This document shows positions 8,104-43,756 of a stretch of DNA of 64,000 nt, piece by piece (the stretch's first letter is position 1; every line of letters begins with the position of its first letter). The translations under genes and the position numbers were made by a program. This stretch comes from a virus. The stretch is from UHGV virus genome UHGV-0042229; one strand, given 5' to 3'. The notes under the pieces were generated by a model. The model worked only from the letters and a program-made list of their open reading frames with translations, did no database searches and was not told where the DNA came from.

Positions 8104-8401
8104 AATCGCAGCGCCATTAGGCGGAGATGCCATTATCGAATTTGATGATAATGAAGAAGTTTCCGGGCGTTTAAGCATTATCTCCGGTGACATTACCGAG
8201 GACATGATCGCTGAAGCCATAGCTGGGGCAAATCCCAATAGCTATATGGGATTCGTTAACACCCTTGATGCTCCCGCAAGTGATGTTCTCCGAACGCTGC
8301 ATCTTTACGCTGGCTGGTTTGTTGATTGGCCAGCAGTAGATGGTGGCGATGAGGACGACGACGATGATTTTGGTGATCATGTAGACCAGATCGTATATTG
8401 A
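8093..8401 (+). CDS. small acidic protein at end of darA operon
   Basis: 102-aa ORF with a poly-Asp tail (DEDDDDDFGDH), overlapping the ddrB stop. Confidence 0.35.
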   Translation: MQIKIAAPLGGDAIIEFDDNEEVSGRLSIISGDITEDMIAEAIAGANPNSYMGFVNTLDAPASDVLRTLHLYAGWFVDWPAVDGGDEDDDDDFGDHVDQIVY

Positions 8402-8403
8402 AG

Positions 8404-8430
8404 AAATCCCGCCAGTCGGCGGGATTTTTA
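8404..8430. terminator. intrinsic terminator hairpin between convergent operons
   Basis: AAATCCCGCC-AGTC-GGCGGGATTT followed by TTT; 10-bp perfect stem immediately after the operon stop. Confidence 0.5.
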
Positions 8431-8432
8431 CC

Positions 8433-9527
8433 TCACGAGAAGCTTTTTTCTGATGTCAGCCAACAGTGCTCGTGCAAATCTCTTGGTGGTTTTTCGACAA
8501 ATGCCTCTTCAGCCACATCCTGCCAGGGGATTTGTTTAGCCCATTCAGTTATAGCGTTATGGTTTGCCGAGAATAACGGTATTGTATAGGCCTTCAGCCA
8601 GTCTAATGTGCTGGAGTTGTGTTTTTGAGCGTGATGTTTCGCATGGTGTTTGGCGATCACGATCGTAGGCACTACCCATTTACTACCGTCAGTCATTGTG
8701 AAGTGCATATTACGGGGAACAGATGACTTTTCCATCAACTCCCGAATCCCGGGAAATTTCCCCAAGATCAATCGGCGATATTCATCGCTATTGCGCCCAC
8801 CAAACTCTTTGGCTTTGAATTCAAGATATGCTTCAGAAACGAGAGGTGAATCCTCTGTGTTTAGAGTTATCGCCGTGAAAAAACCAGCAGGATTGTTTTT
8901 ACTATGGGCCAACCGGTGATGCGAATCATAAAAGTACCCTTTCTCGCGTTCCGATGGTTTCGACAGCAACAGCAGGCGCGAGTCATAATTGGTTAAATTG
9001 CCAGTTATCACTGCATGAGCGCGATCGCTGATTTCCGCCGAGTTAATAACGATGAAAAGATCGTGCGGTCCAGTAAAACCAGCCAGAGACTCTTCGTTAT
9101 TCAGACAATAGGTTATATAGACGCATCCCCATGTTTCACTGATATGCACCAACCCTTTGTCAGGGTGTATTCTGAAATAATTGCCAAGAAAAGGGTGTTT
9201 TTGGGTAACTCGCTCCCAATAACGGAACATATAGTCAATTATTGTTTTTCGACTATCGTTAATCGCAGGAGAAACAACCACTGTACGGGAACACGAATAC
9301 AGTATTGTTTGCAGGATGCTAATCACTGCCACAATAGAGGTTTCCCCAATACCATGTGGTGTGGTGGCAGTGACTTTGGCTCCGGTGTTCTTTATCGCGT
9401 TAATAATTTTTGCCTGATGAGGTGTTAACTCAATATCAAGCAACTCTTTTGCTGCCAGTTCCCAATTGTCTTTATACCGTTCTATCAGTGCTAACCAGGC
9501 AGATTCATTCTGTATACGATTAATCAC
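8433..9527 (-). CDS. terminase large-subunit (PacB) paralog with degenerate ATPase motifs, no nuclease domain
   Basis: ITGNLTNYDSRLLLLSKPSEREKGYFYDSHHRLA... aligns by eye with Pac[34 protein letters not shown]...; Walker A GTGKS is GIGET and Walker B IIDEAS is VINSAE. Confidence 0.6.
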   Translation of the reverse strand: MINRIQNESAWLALIERYKDNWELAAKELLDIELTPHQAKIINAIKNTGAKVTATTPHGIGETSIVAVISILQTILYSCSRTVVVSPAINDSRKTIIDYMFRYWERVTQKHPFLGNYFRIHPDKGLVHISETWGCVYITYCLNNEESLAGFTGPHDLFIVINSAEISDRAHAVITGNLTNYDSRLLLLSKPSEREKGYFYDSHHRLAHSKNNPAGFFTAITLNTEDSPLVSEAYLEFKAKEFGGRNSDEYRRLILGKFPGIRELMEKSSVPRNMHFTMTDGSKWVVPTIVIAKHHAKHHAQKHNSSTLDWLKAYTIPLFSANHNAITEWAKQIPWQDVAEEAFVEKPPRDLHEHCWLTSEKSFS

Positions 9528-10308
9528 TTTCCACCTCTTCCGTGGTGTTTTCTTGCAGTTCTGTTAATGCAGCACGACATAGGTTCCGGGCATTGGCTAT
9601 AGCCACACTTTTGACTTCATCCGTCATCGTGCAGGTAATGTACTGATCGAGTTCTTCAGCGCGGATGATGCTTTTGCCAATCAGAAACTGTATTTGCCAT
9701 AGCAGATCGGCATCCATAATCAGAATTTCTGCCGGGCCTTCAGGGCCAGCCGGGAAGGAAACATAAGACTGTTTGCCCAGGCCGACAACTCGACAACTTG
9801 CTTCAAGAATTGCGCGCTTGAGGTCTGACTTTATAACGGAAACAGGTTGATTTTCACCAGTGATTACGCCGTTGACATGGAAAGGCATGTAGCTTGAAAT
9901 ACGCTCCACTTTCCACACGCCAGCAAGCGATCCTTCATGCAGCACAATGGGGGTAACCGCGAGTTTCATCTCACCATATAACTGCTGGCAGATAGCTGGA
10001 TTGCTGAATACATCTAAAGGCTCACATTCAAACAGCGGCGCAATCTGCATGAGGTCCATCATGGTCATCCCTGGGGTACGAGCAGTAATGAATTTGCGCA
10101 TACCAGTATCCATTGCGCTCCAGATTGCTACACCATGCTTTTTGCTCACTTCTTCAGTAAAGCCAAGGTGGCACATGATGGTTTTTTCGATAGCCAGATC
10201 GGAGATAGAAACCTTTTCGCCAGGTACACCATCATTATTGATGGTCACTTCGACACTCTGGCCATTACGCAGGCGGTATTGAATTGTTTTAGTATTTTGT
10301 GCTGCCAT
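9520..10308 (-). CDS. hypothetical protein
   Basis: ORF in operon with ssb; start placed at internal ATG (MAAQNTK...) to avoid overlap with the upstream small ORF. Confidence 0.45.
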   Translation of the reverse strand: MAAQNTKTIQYRLRNGQSVEVTINNDGVPGEKVSISDLAIEKTIMCHLGFTEEVSKKHGVAIWSAMDTGMRKFITARTPGMTMMDLMQIAPLFECEPLDVFSNPAICQQLYGEMKLAVTPIVLHEGSLAGVWKVERISSYMPFHVNGVITGENQPVSVIKSDLKRAILEASCRVVGLGKQSYVSFPAGPEGPAEILIMDADLLWQIQFLIGKSIIRAEELDQYITCTMTDEVKSVAIANARNLCRAALTELQENTTEEVESD

Positions 10309-10322
10309 AGTCTTTTCTCTGC

Positions 10323-10505
10323 TTAAAAACTGATGTATTGCGCCTTCAGGTGGGTCAGGAATGTTTTCCCACCAGCGAAAGCAATATCTCGGGGTGTTCT
10401 GTTCGTTAAAAACGCGTTCCATTGCCAACTTTGGCGTTTTTTAGCGAGTTCGTGCTTTTGTTGGCGTTTGGACCACCGCTTTTCTTTCAGTCGTTTTTTA
10501 CTCAT
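10323..10505 (-). CDS. small basic protein
   Basis: 60-aa Lys/Arg-rich ORF immediately downstream of ssb. Confidence 0.3.
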   Translation of the reverse strand: MSKKRLKEKRWSKRQQKHELAKKRQSWQWNAFLTNRTPRDIAFAGGKTFLTHLKAQYISF

Positions 10506-10510
10506 AAACT

Positions 10511-10999
10511 CTAAAACGGAATATCGTCTTCAAAGTCCATTGGAGGTTCGTTATTGGCGCTGCTCTGAGGTTTGCCACCACCGCTGTATTGCTGGTGGTT
10601 TTGAGGTTGGTTTGACTGCCCCCAGCCATTTGAGGACTGTGAATCGTCGCGGCGAGCGCCGATCATTTGCATGGTGCCGCCCTGGCTGACGATAATTTCC
10701 GTCGTGTAACGTTCTACACCGGCGTCATCTGTCCACTTACGGGTTTTAAGTTTCCCTTCGATGTAGACCTGAGAACCTTTTCGTAAATACTCACTCGCAA
10801 TTTCAGCAATTTTTCCGAACAAAACGACTTTATGCCATTCTGTTTGCTCTTTCTGTTGGCCTGTTTGCTTGTCGCGCCATGATTCATTCGTTGCGATGCT
10901 GAGTCTTCCGACTGCTCCGCCATTTGGTATATACCTGATATCTGGGTCTTGTCCCAGGGTACCTATCAGGATGACTTTATTTACACCGCGTTGTGCCAC
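10511..10999 (-). CDS. ssb: single-stranded DNA-binding protein
   Basis: OB-fold N-terminus ([23 protein letters not shown]...), Gly/Gln-rich linker and acidic tail DFEDDIPF. Confidence 0.9.
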
Positions 11000-11018: not shown

Positions 11019-11035
11019 AAATTAATTAGAGCAAT
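11019..11035 (-). promoter_or_regulatory. C1 operator (1 mismatch to ATTGCTCTAATAAATTT)
   Basis: AAATTAATTAGAGCAAT on the + strand, 20 bp upstream of the ssb start. Confidence 0.6.
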
Positions 11036-11726: not shown

Positions 11727-12017
11727 ACTCCGGCAGCTCCGCCGACTTTCGACAATGAAGTTATCGCTGGCGGCGATAGTTTTTGACTCGATTTTCATGG
11801 CGGTATATGTGCTCAATGAGACGTGGCCACTGGAACCGCTATTGTATGCCGGGCTTCGGCTGTGCCTGACATTTTTGAGCATGGCTGCGAGATTGATGCA
11901 GCAGAAAGAAACCGCTTCAGATTGTCCACGCCGCGCGGTGCGCAAATATATGGCACGCAGGCGAAGGCGATAATAGTTAACGAGAACCCCGGCAGCTGCC
12001 GGGGTTATTTTTGGTGG

Positions 12018-14748
<2,731 letters not shown>

Positions 14749-26719: not shown

Positions 26720-26736
26720 ATAATTATTAGAGCAAT
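26720..26736 (-). promoter_or_regulatory. C1 operator (2 mismatches)
   Basis: ATAATTATTAGAGCAAT between loxP and coi. Confidence 0.6.
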
Positions 26737-26802
26737 AAATTTAGAGAGAAAAATCCCACTCCACCAGCTAAAAACTGGATTGTTTTTCATAGTTGTTTGA
26801 CA

Positions 26803-26819
26803 ATTGCTCTAATAAATTA
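26803..26819 (+). promoter_or_regulatory. C1 operator (1 mismatch)
   Basis: ATTGCTCTAATAAATTA upstream of coi-c1. Confidence 0.7.
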
Positions 26820-29934: not shown

Positions 29935-31419
29935 TTACTCATTAAGCCATGCCAGAGCTTCATCAACCTGCGCTTCGTCTTCGACGCTAAGCACTTCATC
30001 CTGGGGAACATAATCCGCCAGCATAGCGAAACAATATGTATCCCAATGGTCTGGTGAGTGCAGGTTGAGTTTTTTCTTCATATCCTCCTTACTCATCACC
30101 TTCCATTGACCTGCGGAGTTAATCCCTACAGGGATTTTCGACGCTTCCTCAATAGTTTCATTACCCTTATCCAGTCTCATACGACCAGATTTTACGGCCT
30201 CTGCGGCTTGAACGTTGGCATAAGCACGTTTATCAAAGTACAGGCTCTTATCTTCACGGCTATGCATCTTTTTACCCCAGCGTATACGCTGTACGGTAAT
30301 ACCATAATACTCGTACATCAGATCCGCCGTTGCTTTACCCAGGCCATCGCCGTCTATCGCTATGGTGATATTTGGGAATCGCTCAGGATTACATTCTGCG
30401 AAAATTTTGGCGGCAAGCTGCGTTTCTGTAACGTCTGTGTATTCCAGCATTCGATAGTTGATTACACGGCGTTTATTTCGCTGGCCGGACACCATCATGA
30501 TATTGATAACGGACTTATCCCGTCCCGTACCACCAGCAACGTCCACACATGCAAGCCAGCCCCATCCTTTTGCAATCTTGACTTTCCGCCGCGTTGCACG
30601 TTCAACCTCATCACGTCCAAGAAGGAAGCCATCCTGTGATTTAGGGAATAGGCCGCGTACCTTAATCATGTACATAGGGTTATCGCGCCCGCCGTACTCC
30701 GCCAGCTTCATTTTGATAAATGCTGGCGTTACCAGCGGTGATTCCTCACTGTTAAGCGTGATCGCCGTATAAACGCCATCAGGGTTACCAGGACGCTTGG
30801 CCAGTTTATGGTGTGTATCGTAGAAATAGCCGCTTGGGCGTGTAGGCTGTGACAGCAATAAGATGCGGTTATCCTGTCCGGTAAGAGCACCGGTGATGAT
30901 ACCGAAAGCTCTATCACTGACACCGGAGGCTTCATCGATAATATACAGAAGATGATCTGCGTGTTCACCGGCGAGAGCTTCTTCACTTCCCAGACGAAAG
31001 CCCTTCGGTACTACAGTCCATACACCTTTACCAGTAACCTCATAGAAAGCGGTTTCTGTCAGAACAAAATAATCAGCAAGCCATGGAAAACGGCTGGTGG
31101 CAGTAGCCCAGTTTATCTTGATGTACTTGAATATACCGGTCATTACCTGCTGAATTTTGTTCGCAACGATAATGGCTCGGGCACCGGGATACATGATTAT
31201 GAACAACATGATCATGATAGAAGTCATGTCTGATTTCCCGGTACCGTGGCCAGACGAAACAGATGTCTTGCTACCCTGTTCCTGCACAGACTCAATAATC
31301 AGATCCTGCTGCCAGGTAGGTGTTTTGCCGAACAAAACATCAGCGGCCGCAATCCAGTCATAACGATATAGCGCCACCAGCTCGCGCCAACGTGGATCCG
31401 TTACGCAACTTCTGGCCAT
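29935..31419 (-). CDS. pacB: PacB terminase large subunit
   Basis: 494 aa with Walker [11 protein letters not shown] and Walker [10 protein letters not shown]; coupled to pacA. Confidence 0.85.
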
Positions 31420-32612
31420 TAATCATCATCCCCGTATAGCTTGCGGGTAACTTCTTCGTCTTCCTCCTCGTCTTCGTCCAGGTCTTGTTCCAGCCATGGT
31501 TCGTTTGATACACCTTCAGTATCAACATCTCCATAACCGCCTGTATCAACGATATCGGCGATTTCTTCCCTACGCTGCTCAATCCACAATGCGGCATCGG
31601 CGCGGCGGTTGGCGGCCCGTTCTCGCGCAACTTTGTCCAGATCTTCAAGAGAAGGGCCACCGACGGCTGTTTGCCTTTCCTCATCATCGGTATTGGTCTT
31701 CGGAGCACGCAGATCGGCTTTGATTTGCTCCAGCATCAGGGGCGGCACTTTCCCGCCATGCGCCTCGATGAATTCAGCTGCTTCCAGCACTGACCAGTTA
31801 TTTTCACGCTTTCGTTCGTATGCCAGCTTAACAATGCCAGCTTGCCCCATAGACAAAGCGTGCTTTTCCGCCTCCCGGCTTTCTTTTCGATAGTTATTCC
31901 GGATGCTGTAAATGGTGTTGATCAGGCTGCTTATCTGCGCGGAACAGCTGTTTAGCATGCTCGCGATACGATATTCAGGCGGAGTCCCTTCATCATCGTC
32001 TTTTTGCTGATCGCGCATTTCCTGCACCAGACGAATACACGTATCCCTGGCATTCTCCAGCATAAGGAGATGAGAAAGAGACTTTTCCAGAAGAGTGGTT
32101 TCCAGAACATCGGCCCCGGACCGACGCAACATAGCGCGCGCGGCCTTCCGCGCTTCAACGTTATCTATCAGGTAATCGCCAGCTTCGAATTCAAAGCGTT
32201 CACCATCATCATCCAGGGTGTCGCGTTCCAGGCGATCACGTAAGGTCCGGTGGGCGCGGGTGATCACGTCATGATCATCAGAACGATCATTTATGCGCTT
32301 ATTTTGGCGCTTCGCATTCTCGACTGCGGCACTGACAACGGCATTAACCCTTTGTTTTTCCGCTATTTCAGCCGCAATGTGATCACCTGCATGTTGATCA
32401 TTAGAGTGATCAATGATCATGCTTTTTAGTGGCTTCCTGACTGGCTTATTTGGCTTGCGGCTGTCCGCTGTCCTGGTGTCTTCTTTGAAGGCACGGAGAT
32501 AACGACGTGCAGTATTAGGGTTAAGATTAAACTCGGCGGCATACTGTGCGATGGTGTAACCACCATCTCGCGCCAGGCGAGCAAAATTCTTCTTGTGATC
32601 GTCCCAGGTCAC
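31419..32612 (-). CDS. pacA: PacA terminase small subunit / pac recognition
   Basis: 397 aa with N-terminal HTH-like region and acidic C-terminus; contains the pac site. Confidence 0.85.
32231..32420. other. pac packaging site with two clusters of GATC-containing hexamers
   Basis: TGATCA/CGATCA hexamers at 32234, 32261, 32272, 32284 and at 32380, 32395, 32407, 32414, about 90 bp apart, inside the 5' part of pacA. Confidence 0.75.
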
Positions 32613-43669: not shown

Positions 43670-43690
43670 AGTGCACCTTGTAGATTGCTC

Positions 43691-43707
43691 TAATAAAAAA
43701 CGTGATG
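43691..43707 (+). promoter_or_regulatory. C1 operator-like site (3 mismatches at the 3' end)
   Basis: ATTGCTCTAATAAAAAA. Confidence 0.45.
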
Positions 43708-43739
43708 AGTGTACATCACGTTTTAAAAATATGGAATTA

Positions 43740-43756
43740 TTAGAGCAATATTATTC
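43740..43756 (-). promoter_or_regulatory. C1 operator-like site (3 mismatches), inverted partner of 43691..43707
   Basis: GGAATTATTAGAGCAAT; the pair flanks the palindrome GTGATGAGTGTACATCAC. Confidence 0.4.

Follow-up and report, generated by a model that had tools for sequence, protein, structure and literature searches.

The virus genome UHGV-0042229, of which a stretch of 64,000 nucleotides was analysed here (the window), is a P1-like phage-plasmid (Punavirus) that carries, besides the packaging gene pacB, a second gene related to those of terminase large subunits (TerL). Its product of 364 amino acids, for which we use the name pT (pseudo-terminase), is with very little doubt a pseudo-enzyme, in which an ATPase fold derived from TerL has lost catalysis, the nuclease domain has gone and a small module related to early phage proteins has been fused; this is a description of structure and evolution. 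The function of pT is a more tentative matter, and the reading that we favour, at a probability of roughly 40%, is that of a non-catalytic terminase mimic that would act in conflict between phage and host or between phages. An initial annotation of this DNA, made from the sequence alone, had described the protein as a degenerate paralogue of PacB; the separate C-terminal domain, the status of the gene as an optional cassette in a known variable region and the existence of a wider family of inactivated TerL derivatives go beyond it.

Homology to PacB and loss of the catalytic motifs

The initial annotation placed the open reading frame (ORF) correctly, and the paralogy that it proposed is borne out by alignment. 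By BLASTP, pT and the PacB of the window share 94 identities over 266 positions (35%, with 58% positives; E=8e-55), and the match joins residues 11-272 of pT to residues 11-274 of PacB, that is, to its ATPase half, ending near residue 272 of both proteins. The conserved block quoted at the outset (LLLLS.P...GYFYD.HH.LA...AITLN.E.SPLV) is present in this alignment. As had been claimed, the RNase-H-like nuclease domain is absent from pT, which is no longer similar to PacB beyond residue 272 or so and comes to its end at residue 364.

Both nucleotide-binding motifs are destroyed. The Walker A motif of PacB, SSGHGTGKS, corresponds to TTPHGIGET in pT, with glutamate (Glu62) in place of the lysine and proline (Pro57) in place of a glycine, which upholds the initial reading of GIGET for GxGKS. 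For Walker B, the initial annotation chose the right segment and rightly called the motif lost, although its register was one residue out; the gapless alignment pairs LLYIIDEAS of PacB with DLFIVINSA of pT, such that the aspartate becomes Ile161 and the catalytic glutamate Asn162, and the conclusion is unchanged. The ASG motif that follows Walker B and the QPTR motif that follows the next strand have also gone. Residues that never or hardly vary among PacB-type TerLs and are lost throughout the clade to which pT belongs (described below) comprise S56, G57, T60, K62, S63, D161 and E162, together with S164, G165, Q190, T192 and R194; the group Q190/T192/R194 is presumably, from its position, the coupling motif of the additional-strand, conserved-glutamate (ASCE) ATPases. 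Kept in the pT clade and PacB-type TerLs alike are Y18, Q37/38, G59, G61, E146, A149, G150, S189, P191, G197, F199, H204, S227, P228, V230, G243, Y250, G256 and F258, and pT and PacB have in common the motifs Q37/Q38, EE.LAG, LLS.P, S189/P191, GYFYDSHH, EDSPLV and, in the lid region, GG...Y...G.FP. At the level of sequence, then, the active site is decayed, and the scaffold and lid region are preserved.

A structural comparison, which the initial annotation had recommended, agrees with the alignment. The AlphaFold2 model of pT has a predicted local distance difference test score (pLDDT) of 85.7 and a predicted template modelling score (pTM) of 0.78, and the top 23 matches found for it in the PDB by Foldseek are all TerLs (best E=8e-9). 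These include Sf6 gp2, the ATPase domain of P74-26 (template modelling scores of 0.62-0.66, normalised to the target), the TerL of D6E and T4 gp17, with helicase-like cores of superfamilies 1 and 2 (SF1/SF2) appearing only further down. Among the PHROGs, pT matches phrog_5902, a family of 'unknown function', over its full length (residues 1-364 against 1-359 of the 359 profile positions; E=1.6e-186); a weaker match is to phrog_2, the family of terminase large subunits (E=3.6e-9). The profile similarity to terminases is thus significant, and pT is no characterised P1 protein of unrelated fold, the reference P1 being without the gene. Scans of pT and of its neighbour IsaA against Pfam, NCBIfam and PADLOC gave nothing significant, and no PDB sequence was retrieved by phmmer or profile search with pT, its family, the family of its C-terminal domain or IsaA. 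Because four of the five features that define a functional TerL are missing (Walker A, Walker B, the nuclease domain and a location in the packaging module, the TerL-type fold alone being present), pT should not be annotated as one.

A family of catalytically dead TerL derivatives

Two further pT alleles occur in D6-like phage-plasmids, approximately 53% and 49% identical to that of the window, and they carry substitutions of their own at the same sites (their Walker A reads GIGRP and GIGHK, their Walker B IIVD and IVMD). Only nine proteins came from a word-indexed search for homologues based on the family alignment; to reach the family, an exhaustive search of 1.84 billion representative proteins was needed, which found 746 relatives. 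Walker residues were surveyed in the best 138 of these, each of at least 200 amino acids. Canonical residues (GK[ST] and [DE]E) are present in 119 of the 138 homologues (median length 484 amino acids), and in 11 the residues are substituted and not simply missing (pT, P0004, P0006, P0007, P0009, P0010, P0013, P0014, P0042, P0043 and P0060); the remaining eight are partial sequences or retain the Walker A lysine and the Walker B DE. At lengths of 230-444 amino acids, none of the 11 substituted homologues has a nuclease domain. In a neighbour-joining tree of the ATPase domain, which is crude, eight of the 11 form an exclusive clade nested within the PacB-type terminases; the members of this clade share 33-49% identity. 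All of the short forms tested match phrog_5902 far better than the terminase family, remote short members reaching E=1e-55 to 1e-75. Species-representative genomes and metagenome contigs, when scanned with the alignment of short forms, yielded no relatives. Neither Walker motif survives in any of the three alleles or in the wider clade, and from this distribution catalytic loss in the clade is judged to be general and old.

The C-terminal module

A profile of pT residues 262-364 retrieved 48 proteins, most of them free-standing and 79-143 amino acids long. This family has neither a Pfam domain nor a name; its motifs are MPDGS.W.VP, DWA.NNMNW.DV and GWVNGEK, of which NNMNW and GWVNGEK are only partly kept in pT. 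In the form common to pT and the family they read M.DGS.W.VP,.WA....W.DV and W...EK. The C-terminal domain of pT also matches the C-terminal region of phrog_17928 (E=1.4e-13), and no clearly similar solved fold was found for it. Three free-standing homologues were traced to their contigs, where all lie among small early or accessory genes (with DnaB, an HU-like protein, Lar, DUF2303, DNA polymerase III beta or a resolvase as neighbour) and none in a packaging module. Two free-standing homologues, P0126 and P0158, have an N-terminal cysteine-rich extension (CKGCGKCACG and CKGCGACSCG) that is absent from the rest and may be a metal-binding addition.

The module recombines independently of the ATPase domain. 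Between the two D6-type alleles (L004, 3983-5077, and L005, 3965-5065), synonymous divergence (dS) is 1.28 in the N-terminal domain and 0.075 in the C-terminal domain, a mismatch that points to recombination at the domain boundary and hence to exchangeable domains. In the remote family member P0010 (444 amino acids) the C-terminal region is a different one, and in most remote members it is absent.

Selection and distribution

Ratios of non-synonymous to synonymous divergence (dN/dS, by the Nei-Gojobori method) between pT alleles are 0.07-0.32, in the N- and C-terminal parts alike, where dS is measurable. The ORF is intact and of the expected length in all 37 viral-contig loci, which represent three alleles, with neither frameshifts nor stops. 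The exact pT protein sequence is found on at least 1000 contigs, and, of 5426 complete E. coli genomes, 100 carry the window-type gene, all but one of these times on a plasmid (99); P1-type pacB is present in 599 of these genomes, a ratio of pT to pacB of about 17%. Low dN/dS, intact ORFs and wide presence together show that pT is under purifying selection and is not a relic.

The pT operon

Features of the locus are collected in Table 1. Gene order in the window is that of P1, with ddrB and hxr followed, on the minus strand, by the pT gene, isaA and ssb, and then by lyz and pro. The start of pT is preceded by a Shine-Dalgarno sequence, GAGGTGG, and there is an overlap of 8 nucleotides between this start and the upstream stop (GTGATTAA). 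Public labels for pT vary: it is 'terminase large subunit' in MH422554 and MH445380, 'DNA packaging protein' in UniProt (A0A193LRI7) and hypothetical in RefSeq, while the annotation of vB_EcoM-813R1 is 7 codons shorter at the 3' end.

The adjacent protein of 262 amino acids, with which the initial annotation had associated pT, is real and linked to it; it is the IsaA of P1, and the ATG at 10308 is the isaA start that is conserved in divergent homologues. The isaA gene lies directly upstream of pT, with stop and start overlapping, at both plasmid loci (L004 and L005) and, among the 37 viral loci, at 35, of which 34 have isaA complete; the upstream flank of the other two is cut by the end of the contig. 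The arrangement is common to all three alleles. IsaA of the window is 46-47% identical to its D6-type partner, against 49-53% for the pT alleles; IsaA having diverged about as far as pT, a long-linked pair is suggested. Homologues of IsaA also stand alone, without pT, in remoter phages. IsaA was considered as a paralogue of the small terminase subunit, PacA, to which it shows no similarity.

The initial annotation had also assigned pT to the ssb operon, with a C1 operator ahead of it, and this stands: the operator corresponds to Ossb/Op21 of P1, and the operon (8.4-11 kb) is some 20 kb from pacB and the adjoining pacA (31419-32612). The window contains 15 sites resembling the C1 operator with at most three mismatches (for example at 26720-26819, 43684-43749 and 57207-57234), against 0.3 expected, which is consistent with the known dispersed C1 regulon of P1. 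Several of these form closely spaced or overlapping pairs. The hairpin beyond the 3' end of pT was found by eye and by its conservation in SJ46; a simple terminator scanner did not call it.

Table 1. Coordinates in the window of the pT gene, its parts and associated features.
Feature	Coordinates	Strand	Description	Basis
pT gene	8433..9527	-	364 amino acids, GTG start; inactivated PacB paralogue, phrog_5902 family	ORF
pT N-terminal domain	8742..9527	-	residues 1-262; TerL-type ATPase fold without catalytic residues	BLASTP with PacB; model
Degenerate Walker A	9339..9362	-	pT residues 56-63, TPHGIGET; PacB SGHGTGKS	alignment
Degenerate Walker B	9036..9059	-	pT residues 157-164, LFIVINSA; PacB LYIIDEAS	alignment
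pT C-terminal domain	8433..8741	-	residues 263-364; small alpha/beta module	homologous to free-standing early phage proteins of about 100 amino acids
pacB	29935..31419	-	functional terminase large subunit, parent paralogue; GTGKS and IIDE intact; 494 amino acids	
isaA-like gene	9520..10308	-	262 amino acids, phrog_2326; stop overlaps pT start by 8 nucleotides	94% identical to P1 IsaA
5' remnant of Tad2-like gene	10306..10481	-	first ~57 codons, fused upstream of isaA	blastn junctions; N-terminus of SJ46 gp048
ssb	10511..10999	-	first gene of the operon	Pfam SSB, E=1e-38; P1 annotation
C1 repressor operator	11019..11035	-	Ossb/Op21 of P1; overlaps the ssb promoters	ATTGCTCTAATTAATTT, one mismatch to consensus
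GC-rich hairpin	8404..8427	.	aaatcccgcc-gact-ggcgggattt, between convergent pT and hxr; likely bidirectional terminator	sequence; SJ46 junction

An optional cassette in a variable region

Over 3.1 kb around the pT gene the window shares 99.5% identity with Escherichia phage vB_EcoM-813R1 and 96.5% with two isolates named 'P1'. The reference P1 has no pT gene, and positions 8400-9503 of the window are there replaced by IS1 and isaB. The product of the latter (L001 2014-2619, 201 amino acids), which occupies the pT slot beside IS1, contains no Pfam domain; it was considered as a truncated or divergent pT, is unrelated to both pT and PacB, and appears to be unrelated cargo and not a fragment of a disrupted gene. 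In SJ46 (L090 1380-1480) and D6 (L092 3770-3870) the absence is clean, the isaA stop being followed directly by the terminator hairpin found after pT in the window or in D6-like plasmids, and the D6 lineage shows the same polymorphism between stop and hairpin, since pT is present in L004 (3950-5125). The Shine-Dalgarno sequence and GTG within the 3' end of isaA are mutated in SJ46, from GAGGTGGAAAGTG to GAAGTGGAAAGCG. Because P1, SJ46 and D6 lack it, pT is dispensable for the basic life cycle. The locus coincides with a published variable region of P1-like phage-plasmids (PMC9603915, PMC6906374), and isaA itself is non-essential in P1 by CRISPR interference (PMC10695390).

In SJ46, Ro157c2YLVW, D6 and D6-like plasmids, a Tad2-like gene stands directly upstream of isaA, with the Tad2-like domain at its end (PF11195, E ~1e-22, scoring better than the gathering cut-off). 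Tad2 proteins have been proven to act as anti-Thoeris sponges, which sequester the signal of the Thoeris system, and genes for anti-defence are often found in clusters (10.1101/2023.05.01.538930). The body of the gene, present in SJ46 (gp048, L090 2224-3069) and Ro157c2YLVW, is deleted in the window and in P1. The N-terminal extension of 58 residues on the IsaA of 320 amino acids annotated in P1 (L001 3615-4577) matches the N-terminus of SJ46 gp048 almost exactly and is thus explained by the 5' remnant of the Tad2-like gene; the 320-residue annotation is probably a fusion artefact, the true IsaA having 262 amino acids from the conserved ATG. On its other side the locus is flanked by hxr and the dar/ddr anti-restriction genes. 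Among remoter loci, L094 (4327-5789) encodes a dead TerL homologue of 263 amino acids that follows and overlaps a Ref-like RecA-dependent nuclease (PF16786), a Ref-like HNH gene comes directly after isaA in L052 and L056 (~11950-12710), and in L075 the pT relative lies among unrelated genes without IsaA. The first two of these arrangements hint at a recurring neighbourhood of isaA, Ref-like and pT genes downstream of a cre-like recombinase.

Discussion

A terminase that lacks the P-loop lysine, the Walker B acids and the nuclease domain can neither translocate nor cut DNA. Since pT can neither power nor cut DNA, it would be expected to act by binding, in proportion to its amount, through the retained N-terminal helices, the EE.LAG, GYFYDSHH and EDSPLV motifs, the GG...Y...G.FP lid region and the C-terminal module. 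The C1 operator and the ssb transcription unit predict early synthesis after induction or infection; judging by the layout, pT would be co-transcribed with ssb from a C1-repressed promoter, translationally coupled to IsaA and made before the late pacAB. We favour a terminase mimic because the contact surfaces are kept, the gene lies in an accessory hotspot that harbours an anti-defence class of genes and the terminase ATPase domain is sensed by bacterial immunity. The dar/ddr anti-restriction genes on the other flank and the independent recombination of the two pT domains speak for it as well. Such a protein would not be a component of the phage's own packaging motor. In the specific version that we prefer it may act as a decoy for, or a block on, the host sensors (Avs1-3 and Upx) by which the terminase ATPase domain is recognised and, as second choice, may interfere with the packaging proteins of a competitor. 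The ATPase domain of terminase is by itself the ligand for Avs2 and Upx; Avs1 and Avs3 are further sensors of terminase (PMC13601566).

Several considerations weigh against this reading. EcAvs2 and SeAvs3 read the active site of terminase and its bound ATP (PMC13601566), and pT, which has neither, may therefore not bind them; moreover, binding, if it occurred, would be predicted to activate such sensors and not to block them. Searches of PADLOC-DB 2.0, which covers known anti-phage defence systems, gave no match for pT, IsaA or Hxr, and, for ten family members, a single hit at chance level (E=0.026). The link to anti-defence is one of position, through the Tad2-like neighbour in relatives, and the argument from neighbours is weak, in that the Tad2-like gene is itself deleted in the window and the other neighbours (ssb, dut, the Ref-like nuclease and the cre-like recombinase) are genes of replication or recombination; remote members, too, occur in other contexts, as in L075 and L094. 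Lastly, we infer co-transcription from Pssb from the layout of the genes only.

A rather unlikely alternative, though the best of those considered, is that pT regulates the packaging of its own phage, by binding PacA, PacB or the portal such that pac cleavage and motor assembly are delayed or tuned until late proteins are available, or by serving PacA as a chaperone. Paralogy with the resident PacB, with N-terminal helices and lid motifs kept, speaks for such a role, as does an early promoter acting ahead of the late pacAB; pT alleles also follow phage lineage, P1-like elements having the window type and D6-like elements the 49-53% types, and in the latter the cassette lies approximately 5 kb from pacB. 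However, laboratory P1, SJ46 and D6 package normally without pT, only about 17% of pacB carriers have it, its place is a variable accessory hotspot outside the packaging module, and no coupling to PacA was found, IsaA not being PacA-like.

Somewhat less plausible again is an accessory role in replication or recombination, in which pT, alongside IsaA, would use its dead ASCE fold and C-terminal module to bind DNA, SSB or proteins of the replisome. An operon common to pT and ssb is consistent with this, as are the DnaB, HU-like, polymerase III beta and Lar genes that adjoin free-standing homologues of the C-terminal domain in early regions, the dut, cre-like and Ref-like neighbours of the relatives of pT and the lower-ranked likeness of its fold to SF1/SF2 helicase cores. 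Yet neither a DNA-binding motif nor a match to a replication family was found in pT, which P1 can do without, and the context of replication genes is ambiguous because the same early regions hold anti-defence genes (Lar, Tad2-like).

We consider it improbable that pT and IsaA form a two-gene exclusion or defence module, with pT as bait for the packaging proteins of competitors or satellites and IsaA as partner or effector. Phage-plasmids commonly carry defence cargo, and this pair of overlapping genes, which persists through about 50% divergence, occupies a hotspot of phage-plasmids; but PADLOC returned no matches, and, to judge by the C1 operator, the genes should be repressed in the lysogen, the state in which defence would matter. 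IsaA, furthermore, occurs harmlessly alone in P1, SJ46, D6 and remoter phages, and its knock-down is neutral in P1. The initial annotation had entertained a regulator or decoy of packaging or a DNA-binding remnant. A plain remnant, a decaying, functionless duplicate of pacB (an evolutionary pseudogene) to which the lost catalytic motifs and nuclease domain and the optional status of the gene might point, is very improbable in view of dN/dS of 0.1-0.3 in both domains, 37 loci of three alleles free of frameshifts and stops, the gain of a foreign domain that is itself conserved, and a family that forms a clade with members 33-49% identical.

Among known systems, PacB and the other PacB-type TerLs of P1- and D6-like elements share with pT the ATPase fold, the PacB of the same genome having 35% identity to it over 266 residues. 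They differ from it in possessing the Walker A lysine, the Walker B aspartate and glutamate, ASG, QPTR and the nuclease domain, whereas pT adds an unrelated C-terminal domain of about 100 residues; pT is, besides, optional and encoded in an early, C1-controlled operon, whereas PacB is essential and encoded beside pacA. The Ppi of SaPI and the Rpp of PICI, two classes of satellite (Staphylococcus aureus pathogenicity islands and phage-inducible chromosomal islands), are non-enzymatic proteins that interfere with packaging by binding the terminase small subunit. Their mechanism is of the binding type proposed for pT, but they are non-homologous, satellite-encoded and not derived from terminase. 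Tad2-like (DUF2829) anti-Thoeris sponges are, like pT, the products of accessory early genes and occupy the same operon slot upstream of isaA in SJ46, D6 and relatives, but there is no relation of sequence or fold and the link is one of position alone. The nearest analogue described is T4 vs.8, likewise a second, nuclease-less phage protein resembling the terminase ATPase domain. It keeps Walker A and B and activates EcAvs2 (PMC13601566), unlike pT, which has lost both motifs; the two are not close relatives, as tblastn found no match in T4. Within the library searched, literature searches on isaA/isaB, pacB paralogues and inactive or decoy terminases returned no description of pT, of phrog_5902 or of an inactivated terminase paralogue.

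At the level of structure the result is solid and mildly surprising, and the pT family is conserved. Labelling pT as a terminase can mislead phage annotation and the terminase-based typing of P1-like phage-plasmids, and the model phage P1 is uninformative on pT because IS1 and isaB occupy its place. TerLs are among the most conserved of phage proteins, and at least four families of bacterial immune sensors detect terminase directly. A clade that is conserved and under selection, has lost catalysis and the nuclease half, has gained a swappable small domain and resides in an accessory hotspot beside anti-defence genes therefore offers itself naturally as a candidate for a terminase mimic without enzymatic activity. 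It is conceivable, if unlikely on present evidence, that phrog_5902 as a whole is a dedicated class of such mimics, early, blind to ATP and fitted with exchangeable C-terminal modules, which would occupy or mislead Avs1-3 and Upx or jam the packaging of rivals, possibly with IsaA. If this is true, phrog_5902 would be the first case of an anti-defence or competition factor that stems from the very viral protein being sensed.

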